A stretch of 12,061 nt of DNA from a virus (taxonomy: Duplodnaviria > Heunggongvirae > Uroviricota > Caudoviricetes): IMG/VR virus record IMGVR_UViG_2574180227_000017. One strand, 5' to 3'. Position 1 is the stretch's first letter, and every line of letters begins with the position of its first letter. Positions 2,636 through 11,112 of the stretch are shown one piece after another. The position numbers and the translations under genes are program-made. The notes under the pieces are model-generated. The model saw only the letters and a program-made list of their open reading frames with translations, was not told the origin of the DNA and did not search any database.

Positions 2636-3194
2636 TATGGTTGCCGTAAATCATATACCACACCTTGTACACACACAAACGGCCTTTGTGTGGCGTTTTC
2701 TGGCACTGAGTGCCGGAGAAAAAAACCGCTTGATCGCCACCAGCAAAAATGGCTATGATTCCCGCGCACCTCATAAAACGGGTGTCGGGATTAGCCTCCT
2801 GAAAACAACTGAAGCGCACAGCACGCGCCCCGCGTGTTTTTTTGTGCCGCATAGTCACACCTTATCAATGGTGGGCTGTACGGGGGCGGAGCAATCCGCG
2901 CCGGTTTCTTCAGTGTCCGGTAAGGCTAACCCTGTACAGTCCGCCACCAGCGAAATTAGCCTTTTGCGTGGCGGTTATCTTAACCACACTGAGGAGGCTG
3001 CCAACATGGCTACTATCCCTACCCTTGTACATTCTCAAACCGCATTTATCTGGCGCTTTATCATCTTTGGCGCGTCAGAATCTCAAATCATCCACGTAAC
3101 CGCCTGGACGGAACGCGAAGCGCGTAGCCGTTGCCCGTCCGGTTGTGTTGCTGTATTCGCCGCCCGTATTCGTCAGGGGTCACATCATGCGTAA
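2636..3194 (+). CDS. hypothetical protein with C-terminal ~60-aa module, possibly Icd-like (internal SD+ATG at 3006 could express the module alone)
   Basis: SD TAGGAG before ATG 2636 and SD GAGGAGG before in-frame ATG 3006. C-terminal module MATIPTLVHSQTAFIWRF...TEREAR...FAARIRQG is paralogous to the C-terminus of ORF 3187-3654, and a degenerate copy (HLVHTQTAFVWRF) sits near the N-terminus. Differences between copies are enriched for synonymous changes. Confidence 0.4.
2822..2843 (+). terminator. intrinsic terminator-like hairpin inside the leader/ORF (possible attenuator)
   Basis: CACGCG-CCC-CGCGTG followed by TTTTTTT. A related G-TTTTTTT-GTG element recurs at about 3310-3325. Confidence 0.45.
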
Positions 3195-3654
3195 AAACCG
3201 CTTGCAAAAAATTATCACGGGGCTGTATGCTTCCCCCGTCGCCCACATGGCGACCGGGTTTGACAGCCTGAATACTACAGCGGACAGCCGCTTACATTCC
3301 GATATGCGGTTTTTTTGTGTCCGTAAACCTACCCATACCCGCATTATGGCGGGGCGTAACGGGGGAGCCTTTGCGCTCGCTGGTTCCTGTAGTGCCAGTC
3401 TGTCAACCCTGTTACGTCTCGCCACCATGTTTGACAGCGTAGTAGCGAGACTCCTTAATTTCACTACAGGAGCCTTTCACATGGCTGTATTCGCACGCCC
3501 TTATTTTGTCTGGCGCTTTATGCAGTGCCTGACAGACAGCATTGCAATATTCACCGTTACCGCTGCCACTGAGCGCGAAGCACGTGCACAGCTGCCGCAC
3601 GCACATCTGATTTTTGTCGCCCGTATTCGTCAGGGGGAAACCTATGCACAATAA
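3187..3654 (+). CDS. hypothetical protein with C-terminal ~58-aa module, possibly Icd-like (internal SD+ATG at 3481)
   Basis: ATG 3187 overlaps the stop of the upstream ORF. C-terminal module MAVFARPYFVWRF...TEREAR...FVARIRQG is paralogous to 3006-3194. The N-terminal half has poor protein-like composition and may be RNA rather than coding. Confidence 0.4.
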   Translation: MRKNRLQKIITGLYASPVAHMATGFDSLNTTADSRLHSDMRFFCVRKPTHTRIMAGRNGGAFALAGSCSASLSTLLRLATMFDSVVARLLNFTTGAFHMAVFARPYFVWRFMQCLTDSIAIFTVTAATEREARAQLPHAHLIFVARIRQGETYAQ

Positions 3655-4096: not shown

Positions 4097-4396
4097 ATGA
4101 AACTTAAATATTCTGGCTTAACTGCCAGTGGCAACACTCACCCTAAATTTACGCGCGGTGATATTTACCGCGACCAGTACGGCGGCACGGTAATGATTAA
4201 GGGCGTGGCGGGACGGTGCGTAACTTACCGCCGTGAAGGTTACGAATATGATTGCGTGATGCCTGTTTATCAGTTCCGGCGTGATTTTTCTCTGGTACAG
4301 ACCGCGCCGCATAACGTGCCCACCAGCAGGGAGAAAGCACGCGCCAATATTCAGGAAATAAAAAAGATGCTTAACGTATTCAGGGGTAAAAAATGA
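4097..4396 (+). CDS. hypothetical protein (99 aa), translationally coupled to the primase gene
   Basis: SD GGAGAA upstream. Stop overlaps the primase ATG (ATGA at 4393-4396). Confidence 0.55.
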   Translation: MKLKYSGLTASGNTHPKFTRGDIYRDQYGGTVMIKGVAGRCVTYRREGYEYDCVMPVYQFRRDFSLVQTAPHNVPTSREKARANIQEIKKMLNVFRGKK

Positions 4397-6141
4397 AACT
4401 GGCACCGAACGTAAAAAAACAGCCACGCGGAATAAAACACAAAGACACAGAGGTAATTATCTTTGCGGGTAGTGATGCCTGGTCACACGCGGAACAATGG
4501 CAGGAGCAGGATGGCCCCGCATCCGGCGATAATGTGCCGCCTGTGTGGCTTGGGCCAAATCAGCTTGCCGAACTTGATGCACTGAAAATTGTTCCGGATG
4601 GAAAAAAACGCGTAAGGCTGTACCAGGCCGGAGAACTGGATTTGGTGGAGACCAAAAAGATTGGTCAGAAGCTGGCGGCGGCAGATATTCAGGACGCAAA
4701 TTTTTACCCCGAAGGAATGCACGTCCAGAAGTGTGAAAACTGGCGGCGCTATCTGAATGCTGAGCGTGAAAATATTGCCGCAGGGCTTACCATGCCGGAG
4801 CAGAAAAATACGCAACTGGCACAAATGGCAGACAGTGAGCGCGCGCAGCTGCTTGCCGAGCGCTTTGATGGCGTTTGTGTGCATCCGGAAAGTGAAATCG
4901 TTCACGTATGGCGCGGCGGGGTATGGTGTCCGGTCAGCACAATGGAACTTAGCCGCGAAATGGTGGCGATCTATTCAGAGCACAGGGCCACTTTCAGCAA
5001 GCGCGTAATCAATAACGCCGTGGAAGCGTTAAAAGTTATTGCCGAACCAATGGGCGAGCCGTCCGGCGATTTGCTGCCGTTTGCCAATGGTGCGCTTGAC
5101 CTGAAAACGGGGGAATTTTCCCCGCACACGCCGGAGAACTGGATCACCACGCACAACGGCATTGAGTACACGCCACCAGCACCAGGGGAGAACATCCGCG
5201 ATAACGCGCCAAACTTTCATAAATGGCTTGAGCACGCAGCCGGAAAAGACCCGCGCAAGATGATGCGTATATGTGCCGCGCTGTACATGATTATGGCGAA
5301 CCGGTACGACTGGCAGATGTTTATTGAGGCCACCGGAGACGGCGGGAGCGGCAAAAGTACATTCACCCACATCGCCAGCCTTTTAGCGGGGAAACAAAAC
5401 ACGGTAAGCGCGGAAATGACATCGCTTGATGATGCTGGTGGGCGTGCGCAGGTTGTCGGGAGTCGTCTTATCGTCCTGGCAGACCAGCCGAAATATACAG
5501 GCGAAGGCACGGGCATCAAGAAAATCACGGGCGGCGACCCCGTGGAAATCAACCCGAAATATGAAAAGCGTTTCACTACGGTAATCAGGGCGGTGGTGCT
5601 GGCGACCAATAACAACCCGATGATATTCACCGAACGGGCCGGAGGCGTGTCACGTCGTCGGGTTATTTTCCGCTTCGACAATATCGTAAGCGAGGCAGAA
5701 AAAGACAGGGAGCTACCGGAAAAGATCGCGGCTGAAATCCCTGTCATTATCCGCCGCTTGCTGGCGAACTTTACCGACCCTGAGAAGGCACGGGCTTTAC
5801 TACTGGAACAGCGTGACGGTGATGAAGCTCTGGCAATAAAGCAACAGACGGATCCGGTTATTGAGTTTTGCCAGTTCCTGAATTTTCTGGAGGAAGCGCG
5901 CGGCCTGATGATGGGTGGCGGTGGCGATTCAGTGAAGTATACGACCAGGAACAGCCTTTACCGCGTCTATCTGGCGTTTATGGCGTACGCAGGCAGGAGC
6001 AAACCGCTAAACGTAAATGACTTTGGCAAGGCTATGAAGCCAGCCGCGAAAGTTTACGGACATGAATATATTACGCGGAAAGTTAAGGGAGTAACGCAGA
6101 CTAACGCAATAACAACAGACGATTGCGACGCGTTTTTATAA
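4393..6141 (+). CDS. replication primase/helicase, P4-alpha-like (D5_N-type domain plus SF3 P-loop NTPase)
   Basis: 582-aa ORF. Walker A GDGGSGKST, Walker B-like LIVLADQ, motif C VVLATNNNP. Followed immediately by an iteron array, as in P4 alpha/ori and PICI pri-rep/ori. Confidence 0.9.
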   Translation: MKLAPNVKKQPRGIKHKDTEVIIFAGSDAWSHAEQWQEQDGPASGDNVPPVWLGPNQLAELDALKIVPDGKKRVRLYQAGELDLVETKKIGQKLAAADIQDANFYPEGMHVQKCENWRRYLNAERENIAAGLTMPEQKNTQLAQMADSERAQLLAERFDGVCVHPESEIVHVWRGGVWCPVSTMELSREMVAIYSEHRATFSKRVINNAVEALKVIAEPMGEPSGDLLPFANGALDLKTGEFSPHTPENWITTHNGIEYTPPAPGENIRDNAPNFHKWLEHAAGKDPRKMMRICAALYMIMANRYDWQMFIEATGDGGSGKSTFTHIASLLAGKQNTVSAEMTSLDDAGGRAQVVGSRLIVLADQPKYTGEGTGIKKITGGDPVEINPKYEKRFTTVIRAVVLATNNNPMIFTERAGGVSRRRVIFRFDNIVSEAEKDRELPEKIAAEIPVIIRRLLANFTDPEKARALLLEQRDGDEALAIKQQTDPVIEFCQFLNFLEEARGLMMGGGGDSVKYTTRNSLYRVYLAFMAYAGRSKPLNVNDFGKAMKPAAKVYGHEYITRKVKGVTQTNAITTDDCDAFL

Positions 6142-6429: not shown

Positions 6430-6708
6430 ATGCACACTTCAGGGAAATTTAATAAATCACTCAAAAAACGCAGAGACAGAACAGAACCGAAATATCGCGC
6501 GTTAGACATGACAGAGCACGCTTTAAAGGTGGCAATCAGAACGATAGACCGCCACGCGGGGGAAGGATACGCGAAAGCACATCCCGAACTGATAAGCGCA
6601 TTCATGACCACGACGGCGGCAAATTTTGCCACGCTGACAGAGCGGGAGATTGCCGAAGCGGAACAGGTAACAACCATCAACGTTAAAACCGGAGAGGTGG
6701 AATCATGA
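6430..6708 (+). CDS. hypothetical protein (92 aa)
   Basis: SD GAGGGGG upstream of ATG 6430. Stop overlaps the ssb start (ATGA at 6705-6708). Confidence 0.5.
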   Translation: MHTSGKFNKSLKKRRDRTEPKYRALDMTEHALKVAIRTIDRHAGEGYAKAHPELISAFMTTTAANFATLTEREIAEAEQVTTINVKTGEVES

Positions 6709-7127
6709 CAGCACAGATAGCCGCTTACGGGCGGCTGGTGGACGACCCGCAGGTAAAACAGACCAGCAAGGGTACACCGATGACGCTGGCGCGTATGGCG
6801 GTATCTTTGCCATGCAGTCAGGCACAGGACGGACAGGCAGCGTTATGGCTATCAGTCCTGGCATTTGGTAAGCAGGCCGACGCGCTGGCGAGACATGAAA
6901 AAGGCGACCTTATCAGCGTGGCGGGTAACATGCAGATCAGCCAGTGGACCGGACAGAACGGAGAAACGCGGCAGGGCTGGCAGGTTATCGCAGACAGTGT
7001 AATCAGTGCGCGAACGGCGCGACTGGGCGGCAAAAAAGGTCAACAGGGCCAGGCTACTGACGCGCTGAACAGGGCAAAACAACAGGCGGGGAATGATGAT
7101 CCGTACGGGGATAACATACCGTTTTAA
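6705..7127 (+). CDS. ssb: single-stranded DNA-binding protein (SSB-like)
   Basis: 140 aa. OB-fold-like pattern alignable to E. coli SSB (G.L..DP ... FGK.A ... KGD..V.G ... W...NGE.R). Ends in the acidic tail DDPYGDNIPF, resembling the canonical SSB tail DDDIPF. Confidence 0.75.
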   Translation: MTAQIAAYGRLVDDPQVKQTSKGTPMTLARMAVSLPCSQAQDGQAALWLSVLAFGKQADALARHEKGDLISVAGNMQISQWTGQNGETRQGWQVIADSVISARTARLGGKKGQQGQATDALNRAKQQAGNDDPYGDNIPF

Positions 7128-7142
7128 GCGACGAGTGACAGA

Positions 7143-7165
7143 AGCCGGAGCAATCCGGCTTTTTT
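7143..7165 (+). terminator. rho-independent terminator
   Basis: AGCCGGA-GCAA-TCCGGCT followed by TTTTTT. Near-identical copy at 9584-9607. Confidence 0.7.
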
Positions 7166-7346
7166 ACGGGTCCTCCTGGCGGGGTGGGCCTGAACACGGG
7201 GCGGGAGGCGCGGAAAAAAGCGCATTTTTGTGATTTTATCGTCATCATCATCATGAGCGTAATTTATTGTTTTTAATTGTTTTGATGCAAAAAAGATGAT
7301 GGTTTTGGTTAATTTTCGTTCGACATCTTTGCAGGCAGATAAAAAA

Positions 7347-7377
7347 GCCCGATAAGGTCAGAGGTGGCTTATCGGGC
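7347..7377. terminator. hairpin with flanking A/T runs (terminator-like on both strands, stronger on minus)
   Basis: GCCCGATAAG-GTCAGAGGTGG-CTTATCGGGC, preceded by AAAAAA and followed by TTT. Confidence 0.45.
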
Positions 7378-7458
7378 TTTTGCATATGAGGCTTTTTGGT
7401 GCACTGACACACATGATCGGGATAATCATTTCATAATTTGCAACGCAATTCAATATCA

Positions 7459-7510
7459 TTGCACAAAATGCAATCATGATTATAATCATAACTGGATGAA
7501 CATCCAGTTA
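7459..7510 (+). promoter_or_regulatory. capsid-operon promoter (TTGCAC 7459-7464, 16-nt spacer, TATAAT 7481-7486) with palindromic operator ATAACTGGATG-AA-CATCCAGTTAT (7487-7510)
   Basis: Read from the sequence. The -10 lies inside the palindrome ATGATTATAATCAT. The operator overlapping the predicted start has the form CTG-N10-CAG. Confidence 0.45.
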
Positions 7511-7542
7511 TGATTTTTTAAGTCAAAGAGGAATTTCTTACT

Positions 7543-7749
7543 ATGGCTGAAGAGAAAAAAGGCGGTGTTTCGGTGTACATAAGCCCCGACATCGTGAAGG
7601 CGCTCAAGGAACGCCACCAGCAGAACGTAAAAGCAGGCATTGCGGCAGGACTTGATCCGCTGGCGATGGTTGAGCCGTCAACAGGCTGGCAGGTACGCGC
7701 CTATTTACGCGCGGCGCTGGGTATGAATCAGGTTCACGGGGGTGAATAA
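7543..7749 (+). CDS. hypothetical protein (68 aa), first gene of the capsid operon
   Basis: SD AGAGG upstream. Stop overlaps the capsid gene start (TAATG at 7747-7751). Confidence 0.5.
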   Translation: MAEEKKGGVSVYISPDIVKALKERHQQNVKAGIAAGLDPLAMVEPSTGWQVRAYLRAALGMNQVHGGE

Positions 7750-8804
7750 TGACAGTAAAAGCAATAGCACTTAACACTAACCAGCTTTTTGCGTACCTGA
7801 ATCGCGAGGATATTGCGGAATTTAAATTCAGTCCGCTGTTTACCGCGCTGTTTTTCCCGAACGTGGCGACATTCAACACACAGGACATCATGTTAGATAA
7901 CCTGGATATTGAAGAAGTCACTATGTCGGCGTTTTGTTCGCCTATGGTTGGTAGCCAGGTTCAGCGCGATAAAGGGTACGAAACAAGCATTATTCGCCCT
8001 GGCTACATGAAGCCAAAACACGAAATCGATCCATTAAAAACAATAATGCGCATGGCTGGAGAAGATCCGGCACAGCTTAACGACCCTACCTACCGCCGTA
8101 TGCGCCTGATTACTGGCAACATGCGCCGCCAGATAAACGCCATTAAAGCGCGCGTGGAATGGCTGGCGGTGAATGCGATAACGACCGGAAAAAACATCAT
8201 TGAGGGCGAAGGCATAGAACGCTATGAAATCGACTGGAAAATACCGGAAAACTGCATCATAGAGCAGGCCAAGGGTAAAAAATGGTCTGAGCAGGATAAA
8301 GACATACACGACCCAATATATGACATTGAACTATACGCAGATCAGGCAGGTTGCCCCGCCAACGTCATGATTATGGGCGTTGATGTATGGCGCATGTTAC
8401 GCAGCTTTAAAAAATTCCGTGAACTGTACGATCTCTCCCGTGGTTCAGAATCCGCCGCAGAGCTGGCATGTAAAAACCTGGGAGAAGTGGTGAGCTTTAA
8501 AGGCTATCTTGGTGATCTGGCCCTTATCGTCTATTCCGGCAAATACACTGACAGCGACGGCACAGAAAAATATTTCCTTGAGCCTGATTTGCTGGTCCTG
8601 GGCAACACCAACAATAAAGGGCTGGTGGCCTATGGTGCGATTATGGAACAGGAAGCGGTAAGAACGGGCGCAACGCAAAACATGTTTTACCCGAAAAACT
8701 GGATTGAAGACGGCGATCCGGCGATTGAGTACGTGCAGACACACAGCGCACCGCAGCCTGTTCCGGCAGATATTCGCAAATTTGTTACCGTCAAAATTGG
8801 TTAA
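7749..8804 (+). CDS. major capsid protein, lambda gpE family
   Basis: 351 aa. Multiple blocks align with lambda gpE as recalled: FKFSPLFTALFF vs FKFDPLFLRLFF, PGYMKPKHEIDP vs PGYVKPKHEVNP, EDPAQLNDPTYRRMRLI vs EDPQNLADPAYRRRRII, LGDLALIVYSGKY vs YGDVAIVVYSGQY, YPKNWIEDGDPA vs YPKNWVTTGDPA. Confidence 0.92.
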   Translation: MTVKAIALNTNQLFAYLNREDIAEFKFSPLFTALFFPNVATFNTQDIMLDNLDIEEVTMSAFCSPMVGSQVQRDKGYETSIIRPGYMKPKHEIDPLKTIMRMAGEDPAQLNDPTYRRMRLITGNMRRQINAIKARVEWLAVNAITTGKNIIEGEGIERYEIDWKIPENCIIEQAKGKKWSEQDKDIHDPIYDIELYADQAGCPANVMIMGVDVWRMLRSFKKFRELYDLSRGSESAAELACKNLGEVVSFKGYLGDLALIVYSGKYTDSDGTEKYFLEPDLLVLGNTNNKGLVAYGAIMEQEAVRTGATQNMFYPKNWIEDGDPAIEYVQTHSAPQPVPADIRKFVTVKIG

Positions 8805-8815
8805 CGGTGGATTCT

Positions 8816-9151
8816 ATGAACACTCCATACATTGAGTTATTTGCAGGCAGTCAGCAGGTATCAACGACGCTGGTACATTTTGCCGCTGATGCTGGCGTTA
8901 TTCAGGAATTTACCCCGCTGATGCTGGCGGACAATGGCGAGTTTAAGCCGTGGGATGGTCAGGAATCTGGCAAGGCTGTTTATCTGACCTCGTACCCCGT
9001 TGACACGTCGACGCAGAAATCAGCACAGTGCTATAAGACGGGGATATTCAATATCGCCGCCGTTAACTGGCCTGAGAGCGTCGACACCGATGCGAAAAAA
9101 TGCGCCGCCTTTGCGGGTTCTGGCGTATCCGTTCAGCCGCTGGCCCGATAA
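8816..9151 (+). CDS. head decoration protein, lambda gpD family (alternative GTG start at 8807)
   Basis: About 111 aa. Conserved gpD blocks TPLML, WDG, YKTGIF (lambda YKSGTF), WPE, KK.AAFAG. SD GGTGGA before ATG 8816. Confidence 0.85.
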   Translation: MNTPYIELFAGSQQVSTTLVHFAADAGVIQEFTPLMLADNGEFKPWDGQESGKAVYLTSYPVDTSTQKSAQCYKTGIFNIAAVNWPESVDTDAKKCAAFAGSGVSVQPLAR

Positions 9152-9163
9152 GCAGGGGGAACG

Positions 9164-9577
9164 ATGGCAACGAATGAAAGCATCATGGCGCTACCGCTGG
9201 CGAGTAAATTTAAAGCCGAAGCGCGGGCAATGGCTGACAGAGGGTTATCAACCTACGAGGCCGTATATCAACTCAACAAACTGGAAGAACAGGACAAGCC
9301 GCGCGCTGATGCGATTATGGCGCTTCATGAACATAACGACTATCAGCCGCTGTTACGTGCAATGGCAAACGTGCCATGTATTAGCGTCGATAATGCTCGT
9401 GAAATCCTGAACATGACCATAGAGCAGGAGCGCCCAAAGGTTGCACCAGAGCTTACCGCAGCCTTTGAAAACTTTATGGACATGCACAGCCCGCAAGCCG
9501 TATCAGCTGGCATGGCGTACGATGGCAGAAACCAGGGCGATGACGGCGACATCGATCGCATACTGAAAACCATCTGA
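9164..9577 (+). CDS. hypothetical protein (137 aa), last gene before cos
   Basis: ORF with SD GGGGGAA upstream, followed by a terminator. Similar in size and position to a head-completion or packaging accessory protein, but no motif recognised. Confidence 0.5.
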   Translation: MATNESIMALPLASKFKAEARAMADRGLSTYEAVYQLNKLEEQDKPRADAIMALHEHNDYQPLLRAMANVPCISVDNAREILNMTIEQERPKVAPELTAAFENFMDMHSPQAVSAGMAYDGRNQGDDGDIDRILKTI

Positions 9578-9583
9578 GACAAG

Positions 9584-9607
9584 GCCGGAGAAATCCGGCT
9601 TTTTTTT
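9584..9607 (+). terminator. rho-independent terminator
   Basis: GCCGGA-GAAA-TCCGGC followed by TTTTTTTT. Copy of the terminator at 7143. Confidence 0.7.
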
Positions 9608-9608
9608 A

Positions 9609-9675
9609 CGGGTCCTTTCCGGCATATGGACCCGTTACGGGGCGGCGACCTCGCGGTTTTTCGCTATTTATGAGC
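9609..9675 (+). other. cos site: cosN 12-nt cohesive-end sequence GGGCGGCGACCT at 9640-9651 with lambda-like flanks
   Basis: ACGGGTCCTTTCCGG...GTTACG-GGGCGGCGACCT-CGCGGTTTTTCGCTATTTATGA matches the lambda right-end/left-end junction as recalled (…GTTACG | GGGCGGCGACCT | CGCGGGTTTTCGCTATTTATGA…). Sequence after about 9675 diverges from lambda cosB. Confidence 0.75.
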
Positions 9676-9799
9676 CTTTTCAGGGGGGTGGTGGTGGTTT
9701 TGTTGTTTGCTCTATCTTTATGAATGAAAAGGGAAAGATGCAAACAATACACCAACCTGAAGCAGTAATTAAGTTGGTGTATTAATGAAATCGCACCTG

Positions 9800-10327
9800 A
9801 TGAACAAAAAAAACATGGCGAAAAGCTGCCGTGTAAGTGCGACAGCGTTCGACAAGTGGGGAGTGACTCCCGTTGAACGTAAAGGCCGTGAGGCGTTTTA
9901 TGATGTTGCCAGCGTGATAGACAATAGGGTTAACAATGCAATTAGCCAGCTTACAAACGACAAAGGCGATATTGACGATGATGAACTATTACGAGTCAGG
10001 ATCAGATTACTGACAGCGCAGGCGGAGGCGCAGGAGCTTAAAAACGAGCGCGAACGAGGCGACGTTATTGATACAGGGTTTTGCCTGTACGCGCTTTCAA
10101 AGCTGGCGAGCCAGATTTCTTCAATCATGGACAGCATCCCGCTTACTATGCAAAGGAGCTTTCCACACATTACCCCAGCCATGCTGGATGGGCTTAAAAG
10201 GGAAGTGGTTAAAGCCTGTAATGCCAGTGCCAGAGTTGCCGACAACCTCCCACAGATACTGGCTGATTACTTGAAAGAAACAACCGGAAACGTACCGGAA
10301 AAGTTGCAGCAGAATAAAGATAAGTAA
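9800..10327 (+). CDS. terminase small subunit, lambda Nu1 family (start taken at MNKKN by alignment; ORF track start 9785)
   Basis: Aligns with lambda Nu1 over its full length: NKK start, YD.A.VI, RLLTAQAEAQELKNERERGDVIDTGFCLYALSKLASQISSIMDSIPLTMQRSFP vs RLTRAQADAQELKNARDSAEVVETAFCTFVLSRIAGEIASILDGLPLSVQRRFP. The N-terminal DNA-recognition segment is the most diverged. Confidence 0.8.
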   Translation: MNKKNMAKSCRVSATAFDKWGVTPVERKGREAFYDVASVIDNRVNNAISQLTNDKGDIDDDELLRVRIRLLTAQAEAQELKNERERGDVIDTGFCLYALSKLASQISSIMDSIPLTMQRSFPHITPAMLDGLKREVVKACNASARVADNLPQILADYLKETTGNVPEKLQQNKDK

Positions 10328-10338
10328 CGTAGTACGCT

Positions 10339-10620
10339 ATGACTGAATCCGAAATACTGCGATTAATCCGCCGCGTCTCTGGAATCAGCCAGCAGGCTGA
10401 CGAACAGACCACGCAGCCGGACAGCGTGACAGCCGAAAACTATGCGCGTGTGGTTGCTGAGGTGATGCGCCGTGATGGTATCCAGCTTAATGATGTGGAT
10501 ATGCGCGACATACGGATCCGCGTTCTTGAAATGCTGGCCTACAATCGCCGCGTTGAGATGTATCGGGAGAAAGAAAAAATAACGTACCACTGGAAGAAGC
10601 CGGAGCGGTTGCGGCGGTAA
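10339..10620 (+). CDS. hypothetical protein (93 aa) in the position where lambda has terminase large subunit gpA
   Basis: ORF 11 nt downstream of the Nu1-like stop. Weak resemblance of residues about 5-40 to the gpA N-terminus (LRLIRRVSG / NRLRHFVRAG; VTAENYA / VEWADANYY). Not conclusive. Confidence 0.4.
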   Translation: MTESEILRLIRRVSGISQQADEQTTQPDSVTAENYARVVAEVMRRDGIQLNDVDMRDIRIRVLEMLAYNRRVEMYREKEKITYHWKKPERLRR

Positions 10621-10677: not shown

Positions 10678-10962
10678 TTCTGAATGGTGATAATCACCAC
10701 GCCCAATCGTGACGGAGAGTGACAGCCAGTGACACGCCGTGACAAAAGACGGTTTAACCGTTAATTAAAAATCGACGGGATTTTGTGTTTTCCGGACGAC
10801 GTAGCCAACGTCATTTTTTAGCGAAAAATTCTGATTAAGGTCATTGTCTGAATGGTCATAATGACCACGCAGACCATCAAGGCAACCATAACGATTTTCG
10901 TTACGGTTGATGTGTGCCTTCGTCCGGCATTCGGACGATATAAGGGATGGTCATAATGACCA
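10678..10962. repeat. three copies of a palindromic motif TGAATGGT(G/C)ATAAT(G/C)ACCAC (10681-10700, 10848-10870, 10945-10964)
   Basis: Near-identical 20-24 bp units read directly. Cores TGGTGATAATCACCA and TGGTCATAATGACCA (x2) are imperfect palindromes about an odd centre. Confidence 0.6.
10709..10743 (+). repeat. four GTGAC pentamers at exact 10-bp spacing (10709, 10719, 10729, 10739)
   Basis: GTGACGGAGA GTGACAGCCA GTGACACGCC GTGACAAAAG. Helically phased direct repeats. Confidence 0.6.
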
Positions 10963-11112
10963 CTCCTACAGAACAGGTAAAACCCACCAGCCTGATTAAC
11001 AGTTAACCGGAAAAAAAATCCGGCATGGGGGGGGAGTGGTTAGCCACGAACAACGAATAAGCTGGACACCGCGCCCCCTCTCACGCAGAGAAAAAATTAC
11101 CGTTTCGTAGTA

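Follow-up and report, generated by a model that had tools for sequence, protein, structure and literature searches.

Phage-inducible chromosomal islands (PICIs) carry virulence and defence genes between enterobacteria, and the cos site decides which phages mobilise a given island. The E. coli island EcCICFT073 possesses two cos sites, each of which mobilises plasmids (Fillol-Salom et al. 2018 ISME J, PMC6092414; see also 2019 Mol Cell, PMC6739421), and its cos1 is required for lambda- and phi80-mediated island transfer (PMC6092414). This sole E. coli case to have been studied experimentally contains two lambda-type sites, and the locus described below makes the reason for carrying two testable. 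Among other satellites, SaPIbov5 carries a cos site and SaPIbov4 two putative ones (PMC6092414, PMC10111431), and a 258-bp stretch of the helper-embedded PICI (HE-PICI) 11capE is 90% identical to the cos of its helper 50icd (PMC10111431). In phage lambda, cosB follows the layout R3-I1-R2-R1, with R3 located at bp 50-65 (PMC9026076). We report here that a catalogued island type, that of E. coli Nissle 1917 and ATCC 25922, bears one more cos, which is intact, belongs to a different terminase class and lies upstream of its capsid operon.

Gene order of the island

The window, that is, the whole stretch of 12,061 nucleotides that was analysed, is a Gram-negative PICI of the EcCIATCC25922 / EcCIED1a.1 type, as indicated by its gene content and its relatives; both islands are named in Table S1 of Fillol-Salom et al. 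2018, the former being that of strain ATCC 25922 (PMC6092414). The hallmarks of PICIs are found in it, namely an integrase (1-1242), an AlpA-type regulator, a primase (4393-6141), an SSB and capsid homologs, and its segment 6300-10000 shares 95% identity with the islands of E. coli Nissle 1917 and ATCC 25922. The SSB gene (6705-7127, plus strand) is assigned by Pfam (SSB, E=8e-16) and is annotated as such in the Nissle 1917 and CFT073 islands. Downstream, the capsid operon (7543-9577, plus strand) comprises a 68-aa ORF, a gpE-family major capsid protein (7749-8804, plus strand; Pfam Phage_cap_E, 7.7e-48), a gpD-family decoration protein (8807-9151, plus strand; Pfam HDPD, 3.7e-18) and a 137-aa ORF. 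The island capsid protein shares at most 47% protein identity with any phage gpE. The operon is flanked by two cos sites, referred to hereafter as copy A (upstream) and copy B (downstream). Adjoining copy B is a Nu1-family small-terminase-like gene (9785-10327, plus strand; 180 aa; Pfam Phage_Nu1, E=9e-23), which is followed by a 93-aa ORF and occupies the place taken in EcCICFT073 by the 144-aa RppA. Analysis with blastp reports no similarity of the Nu1-like protein to RppA or to the DUF1441 small terminases, and a PDB sequence search returned no match for its 180 residues, indicating that it is not a close relative of RppC.

Several further elements were observed along the island. Rfam analysis reports isrK, two C4 antisense RNAs and one c4-a1b1 target at 2766-3429; these are P1/P4-type immunity RNAs of the island early region, lying beside Icd-like genes within a module that repeats every ~360-460 bp (repeat families D5, D10 and D14). 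They are the sole Rfam matches of the window, and no RNA family is reported at 7100-7550. Directly 3' of the primase gene, the segment 6155-6263 exhibits CTGTCTACC-type direct repeats and an inverted repeat (families D2 and I18), and is probably the island replication origin. Three copies of TCTGAATGGT[G/C]ATAAT[C/G]ACCACGC, each with an internal palindrome, are found at 10679-10965, 3' of the 93-aa gene (family D4). Two minus-strand ORFs that run across copy A (7054-7254 and 7251-7412) are unannotated in the RefSeq relatives.

Anatomy of the upstream cos site

Sixteen nucleotides past the stop codon of the SSB gene, and preceding copy A, a hairpin, GCCGGAGCAATCCGGC, with a G+C-rich 10-bp stem (7144-7159, plus strand; -15.4 kcal/mol, z=-4.9) is followed by six T (7160-7165), the whole (7144-7165) being a predicted intrinsic (Rho-independent) terminator. 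This terminator belongs to the slot and not to the cos insertion, since an identical hairpin is present in islands devoid of copy A (L008 and EcCICFT073).

Copy A itself (7161-7330, plus strand) spans 170 bp, over which it is homologous to an entire phage cos (cosQ-cosN-cosB) of a class termed here type b. It contains the 9-mer ACGGGTCCT (7166-7174, plus strand), within which an exact cosQ, GGGTCCT (7168-7174, plus strand), is located 24 bp 5' of the predicted top-strand nick; read off the sequences in the same way, the corresponding distance in both lambda and copy B is 23 bp. A spacer of 21 bp (7175-7195) leads to the cosN segment, ACGGGGCGGGAGGCGCGG (7196-7213, plus strand). Its cosN reads CG/GGGCGGGAGGCG/CG (7197-7212, plus strand; slashes mark the predicted nicks): the left half GGGCGG is preceded by a CG (CG/GGGCGG, 7197-7204), and a second CG follows exactly 12 bp on (GGGCGGGAGGCG/CG, 7199-7212), from which a 12-nt 5' overhang covering 7199-7210 can be read.

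The cosB part of copy A begins with an R3-like element, GTCATCATCATCAT (7241-7254, plus strand; bp 43-56 from the nick), a putative small-terminase binding site that is unchanged in phage, PICI-downstream and PICI-upstream copies and is placed much as R3 is in lambda (bp 50-65). The ensuing A/T-rich block, TTGTTTTTAATTG (7267-7279, plus strand), lies between the R3-like and R2-like elements, and its core, TTGTTTTTAAT, is unchanged in all three contexts; if we assume that it corresponds to I1 in the lambda cosB layout R3-I1-R2-R1, it is a possible IHF-bend region. The R2-like element GATGATG, inverted CATCATC, is found at 7295-7301 (plus strand; bp 97-103), and AAAAAGATGATG, which represents it, is unchanged in all type-b copies. 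Lastly, an R1-like element, GTTCGACATCTTT (7318-7330, plus strand; bp 120-132), forms the right end of the phage cos homology. Copy A and the phages share three such stretches, namely the CATCAT block (bp 43-56), GATGATG (bp 97-103) and ACATCTTT (bp 120-132). These blocks parallel the lambda elements R3-I1-R2-R1, by analogy with which they are candidate binding sites. Beyond them, a strong hairpin, AAAAAAGCCCGATAAGG...CTTATCGGGCTTTT (7341-7381, either strand; -25.6 kcal/mol, z=-4.0), marks the right border of the insertion. Copy A is very probably a whole lambda-family cos, composed of a cosQ, a cosN with 12-nt ends and a cosB in which an R3-like element, an A/T block, an inverted R2 and an R1 succeed one another, and its packaging-specificity class differs from that of copy B.

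A sequence-only reading of this DNA had held that copy A is probably not cleavable, the CGACCT half of cosN being absent from it. This conflicts with published genetics. The features conserved in lambda-like cos sites are cosQ, positions 1-6 of the cohesive end and the CG dinucleotides flanking both nicks, while positions 7-12 show natural variation and can be mutated with little effect (PMC4669245). Copy A carries cosQ, bp 1-6 and both CG flanks intact, and a cos site without the CGACCT of lambda is not thereby dead. The reading of a 12-nt stagger also fits mEp213, for which GGGCGGCGCGCT has been deduced to be a 12-nt end (PMC12315714), and phage 606R10 (GGGCGGGAGCGT).

The two cos sites of the window compared

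Copy B (9610-9697, plus strand) is a lambda-type cos. It is preceded by a terminator hairpin, GCCGGAGAAATCCGGC (9584-9599, plus strand), with a run of eight T reaching to 9607, and its 9-mer ACGGGTCCT (9608-9616, plus strand), comprising the cosQ at 9610-9616, is followed by a 20-bp spacer and by the cosN segment ACGGGGCGGCGACCTCGCGG (9637-9656, plus strand), in which CG/GGGCGGCGACCT/CG covers 9638-9653. An island-specific R3-like element, GGTGGTGGTGG, is found at 9687-9697 (plus strand). Copy B has the cosQ of lambda, the 23-bp spacer length of lambda and the exact lambda cohesive end, and it is near-identical to cos1 of EcCICFT073 from cosQ to about bp 34.

The two copies have the same orientation, lie 2441 bp apart and flank the capsid operon. 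The sequence-only reading was right to see in copy A another cos-like site, the cosQ of which is perfect, and to have it bracket this operon together with the cos downstream, which is of lambda type. The terminator and cos motifs that it had reported as shared are also present, and the similarity extends beyond the hairpin. The hairpins at 7144-7165 and 9584-9605 share 95% identity (family D6) and are equally stable (both ~-15.5 kcal/mol, z about -5), and the hairpin-plus-cosQ blocks agree at 37 out of 40 positions, with a local score of 52 against a maximum of 26 over 436 other windows of the same sequence. GGGTCCT has exactly two occurrences in the 12 kb window, in copies A and B, and so has ACGGGGCGG, the left half of cosN (0.11 expected; two occurrences were reached in 1 out of 200 shuffles). 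Beyond the T-run, the copies have in common just the two 9-mers ACGGGTCCT and ACGGGGCGG, at matching offsets: local alignment of the post-terminator sequences scores 18, not above the shuffles (mean 16.8), and the spacer, the right half of cosN and all downstream sequence are unrelated. The likeness between A and B is confined to elements conserved in all lambda-like cos sites.

It had been proposed from this likeness that copy A arose from copy B (9584-9656) by duplication of a terminator plus a cos-proximal segment, and has since diverged and been inactivated. The 37/40 agreement of the terminator-plus-cosQ blocks and the occurrence of ACGGGGCGG in both copies are what such a duplication would explain; outside those motifs, A and B are unrelated, and the terminator, which islands lacking copy A also possess, did not arise by duplication together with the cos. 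Copy A is instead homologous over 170 bp to the cos of another phage lineage, with 86-99% identity to type-b phage and island sites over 165 bp, and we consider an origin by duplication highly improbable.

A cos class shared with Stx-type lambdoid phages

The cos of lambda-like genomes is located between Rz and the small terminase gene. The segment 7161-7260 of the window shares 94% identity with the unannotated Rz-to-terS spacer of Stx-converting lambdoid prophages, and over the whole 170 bp (7161-7330) copy A and the phage cos are 86-94% identical with equal spacing throughout; in the alignment with one of the phage sequences (L001 4001-4170), 155 out of 172 positions are equal. The phage homology stops exactly at 7330. 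In the phages, the homologous segment is found in the gap between the endopeptidase and terS genes (L001) or between Rz and terS (L003), and prophages with a matching cos include Stx2_112808 (LC567830), VT1-Sakai (AP000400) and phage 1720a-02. The TerS of type-b phages is a DUF1441 protein, and their TerL comprises GpA ATPase and nuclease domains.

A scan of IMG/VR reports the type-b cos in phages, 3' of a protease-capsid fusion gene in islands, and after the SSB terminator. Over its 165-bp core, copy A is 97-99% identical to the upstream-slot copies, 88-91.5% to the downstream island copies and 86-88% to the phage copies. The cohesive end of type-b phages is GGGCGGGCGGCG, from which that of copy A, GGGCGGGAGGCG, differs at position 8 alone: an A is found there in 16 out of 16 upstream-slot copies, and a C in all 34 phage-context copies (13 + 21) and all 19 downstream-slot copies of a sample that represents 23 distinct type-b sequences. 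Our literature search found no published cohesive ends for type-b phages. Among the GTDB species representatives, the type-b core returned 0 matches, and the terminator-cosQ junction only 4 chance matches, in unrelated bacteria.

Two structural features of these cos classes can be added. Relative to the 606R10-type cos, type b has 2 bp more in the cosQ-cosN spacer and 2 bp fewer just after cosN (L003 1100-1160, L001 4008-4070, window 7168-7230), so that the cosQ-to-cosB distance is constant and cosN has moved. At the position equivalent to R3 of lambda (bp about 43-60), a triplet repeat is present in every cos class seen, namely CATCATCAT in type b (window 7241-7254), CACCATCACC in a class termed type a (L006 about 4830), ACCACCACC in cos1 of EcCICFT073 (L005 about 10610) and, in complementary sense, GGTGGTGGT in copy B (9687-9697); the GGTGGTGGT triplet correlates with the presence of the Nu1-like protein in place of RppA.

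The upstream slot in related islands

Copy A is a clean ~170-bp indel. It is absent from L008, an island with the same capsid operon, and from EcCICFT073; in the islands without it, the terminator of the SSB or PerC gene is followed by 7-8 bp (GCGCCCA or ATGCCCCA) and then by the AAAAAAGCCCGATAAGG hairpin. To place this in the wider family, 100 distinct island loci, which are not phylogenetically independent, were anchored on the 3' end of the SSB gene. A cos-like site is found ~90 nt past the anchor in 72 of them, the slot being empty in the other 28, and a second site lies ~2-3.4 kb downstream in 47 of the 54 loci whose length allows a judgement; a third, inverted site is present in some. 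Most related islands have the slot of copy A occupied, with several cos classes represented among the occupants, and the same architecture holds different classes together with either of two capsid modules (gpE/gpD, or a protease-capsid fusion).

The two slots differ in how well their sites are kept. All 47 downstream sites have an exact cosQ (0 mutated) and 41 are fully intact, i.e. with an exact cosQ and a CG right flank, versus 53 exact, 19 mutated and 46 fully intact out of 72 upstream sites. At least three separate events are visible, and the cosQ mutants GGGTTCT and GGGGCCT occur in close relatives of the window island. In O157-type islands the upstream site has decayed (cosQ AGGTACT, a 1-bp cosN indel and, in L011, a G2-to-A mutation in the left half). 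The earlier description of the upstream site as degenerate therefore suits the same slot in other island lineages and not this copy, in which the critical motifs are intact.

The survey returned further arrangements. In O157-type islands (L006 about 4757-4940 and 15 other distinct loci), the upstream cosB is of type a and the downstream one of type b, two cosB classes that in phages accompany one and the same cosQ-cosN. Three sites are found in the Nissle 1917 island: besides copy A, it carries equivalents of cos1 and, in inverted orientation, of cos2. The window lacks the last of these. The third Nissle site (L004 13211-13247, minus strand) is of lambda type and lies in the 257-bp spacer between the Nu1-like and 93-aa genes; in the window, these genes are 11 bp apart (10327-10339) and the inverted cos is missing. 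One locus, L089, had seemed to carry an upstream cos alone; in it (7464-9424, minus strand), the integrase and AlpA genes of a foreign island directly follow a truncated ClpP-type protease gene, an arrangement that points to nested or tandem PICIs, and, the protease gene being interrupted by a second island, the locus was set aside without inference.

An origin of copy A by recombination is plausible, given the clean ~170-bp insertion relative to islands without it, and to this extent the earlier proposal of a recombination scar left by capsid acquisition stands. Its second half does not: joint acquisition of copy A and the capsid module from a type-b phage was ruled out by the distance of the island capsid protein to any phage gpE (at most 47% identity), and copy A is no sign that the capsid genes were captured recently.

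Cos regions are terminase-cut and recombinogenic, and the main rival to a role of copy A in packaging is that it is a relic, brought after the SSB terminator from an island or a phage, functionless, and intact through youth or through hitch-hiking with the regulatory spacer of the capsid operon. The clean presence/absence polymorphism, the decayed upstream sites of other lineages and the cosQ point mutants among close relatives would all be accounted for, as would the finding that its closest non-identical kin are the type-b sites of other islands (88-91.5%) rather than those of phages (86-88%). Different capsid modules between the same two slots are likewise expected if cos sites act as cassette borders, and both the low diversity across the whole 7128-7542 spacer and the lack of a matching resident prophage in the sampled genomes agree with a relic. 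What such a history explains poorly is that the insertion matches the functional unit exactly, extending from cosQ through the final cosB element without surplus sequence, that all critical motifs are unchanged and 125 out of 129 invariant columns kept, and that the slot is filled by several cos classes in 72/100 loci, for which repeated neutral accidents are hard to invoke. We hold the relic to be possible, if somewhat doubtful.

Possible roles of copy A in packaging

The reading that we prefer, with a probability of roughly 50%, is that copy A may provide an alternative packaging site for a second class of helpers. When a type-b phage grows beside the replicating island, the phage small terminase would bind the phage-type cosB of copy A, and gpA would nick the top strand of cosN at the 7198/7199 junction and the bottom strand 12 bp further, opposite 7210/7211; island concatemers would then be packaged rightward from copy A without any island-encoded redirecting protein. 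Copy B, with its lambda cosN and its island-specific cosB by the Nu1-like gene, would serve helpers of the lambda / phi80 / 21 type, which would use it via the island Nu1-like protein. The net effect would be one island accessible to two helper classes.

This two-helper reading is consistent with the extent of the phage homology, which spans exactly cosQ to the last cosB element and nothing more. [quoted passage not shown] Moreover, 7190-7301 is invariant in 14 distinct islands, the flanking genes of which vary at 10-30 out of 100 columns, and the phage TerS belongs to DUF1441, while the island protein is of the Nu1 family and unrelated. In O157-type islands, over the ~3.5 kb that follow the SSB gene, the only cos found to be fully intact is of type b, indicating that islands do rely on cos sites of this type. 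EcCICFT073, with its two plasmid-mobilising sites, and 11capE, with its near-copy of the helper cos, offer precedents.

Other observations weigh against it. Diversity is low across the entire spacer 7128-7542 and not in the cos block alone, and copy A has only ~7 private changes, so that selection is inseparable from youth or hitch-hiking. Copy A is carried at 95% identity or more by ~157 E. coli genomes, nearly all sampled entries of which gave a single match, and a resident type-b prophage was not seen among them. At the level of the family, copy A is dispensable (absent from L008 and EcCICFT073, and 28 out of 100 loci have no site in the slot), and cosQ is mutated in 19/72 upstream sites versus 0/47 downstream. 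In EcCICFT073, deletion of cos2 raised transfer by lambda (PMC6092414).

The uneven loss of cosQ bears on another proposal, which we regard as unlikely, that copy A acts in termination, a terminase that started from copy B cutting at A and thereby setting or disturbing the packaged length, or in interference, the high-copy island cos titrating helper terminase. Termination in lambda requires cosQ and cosN and not cosB, and TerL tolerates changes in the right half (PMC4669245); the cosQ and left half of copy A are exact, and a loss of cosQ that is specific to upstream sites (19/72 vs 0/47) fits selection against unwanted termination. On the two-helper reading too, by simple arithmetic and with a unit of ~11.3 kb, packaging started at B would meet A at ~42.8 kb and B at ~45.2 kb, both within the packageable range of lambda. 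However, a molecule that starts at B and ends at A would have cohesive ends mismatched at 5 out of 12 positions and a last unit without the capsid operon, which looks costly, and the whole cosB is retained in copy A though termination does not need it. The cost of mismatched ends could explain the recurrent loss of the upstream cosQ. As for interference, a decoy effect is indistinguishable from that of being packaged.

If the two-helper reading is extended to the family, Gram-negative cos-PICIs might maintain several cos sites at set positions about the capsid module, each for a different helper terminase family; here, copy B would operate with Nu1-type lambda / phi80 / 21 helpers via the island Nu1-like protein, and copy A directly with lambdoids that have a DUF1441 TerS. 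This generalization is offered tentatively. Judging from the class of copy A, the island might be open to mobilisation by Stx-type lambdoid phages, a possibility of relevance to the safety of probiotic and reference strains.

Comparison with known systems

Among the described islands, EcCICFT073 shares with the window the nature of a Gram-negative cos-PICI with more than one cos and the order primase, SSB, 68-aa ORF, gpE-like capsid, gpD-like decoration, 137-aa ORF, cos, packaging-specificity gene and 93-aa ORF. Copy B is the counterpart of its cos1, which occupies the same position in the gap between the 137-aa gene and rppA, on the plus strand in EcCICFT073. [quoted passage not shown] Its position 5' of the capsid operon, its location on the plus strand and its cohesive end GGGCGGGAGGCG rule out that copy A is the published cos2, of which a motif search found no counterpart in the window. 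Relative to cos1 and cos2 of EcCICFT073, copy A is a third, undescribed site, and our literature search found no paper describing a cos upstream of capsid genes.

The comparison with lambda reveals a common organization: a 7-bp cosQ, GGGTCCT, ~23 bp 5' of the nick, a CG/GGGCGG....../CG arrangement that fits a 12-nt 5' end, and a cosB whose repeats, some direct and some inverted, surround an A/T-rich block; in the phage homologs, the site is located just 5' of terS. Copy A differs in its spacing of 24 instead of 23 bp, in its cosB repeats, which are CATCAT-type and not the lambda R sequence, and in the cognate small terminase of its class, DUF1441 where that of lambda is Nu1. The cos sites of Stx prophages are closer, with equal spacing and a nucleotide identity to copy A of 86-94% over the stretch that begins with cosQ and ends with the final cosB element, but they are preceded by the lysis region, where copy A has the island terminator, and are followed by terS, which copy A is not.

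As in 11capE and the cos-carrying SaPIs, a satellite here carries a near-copy of a helper-type cos, by which the helper terminase could package it, and, as in SaPIbov4 and EcCICFT073, two cos sites are present on one island. In 11capE and the SaPIs, however, the helper-like cos is the main site, whereas copy A is an additional one, of another class and 5' of the capsid genes. Copy A is therefore a further example of a known phenomenon, the extra helper-type cos of cos-PICIs, and differs from the two published sites of EcCICFT073 in position, orientation and terminase class.
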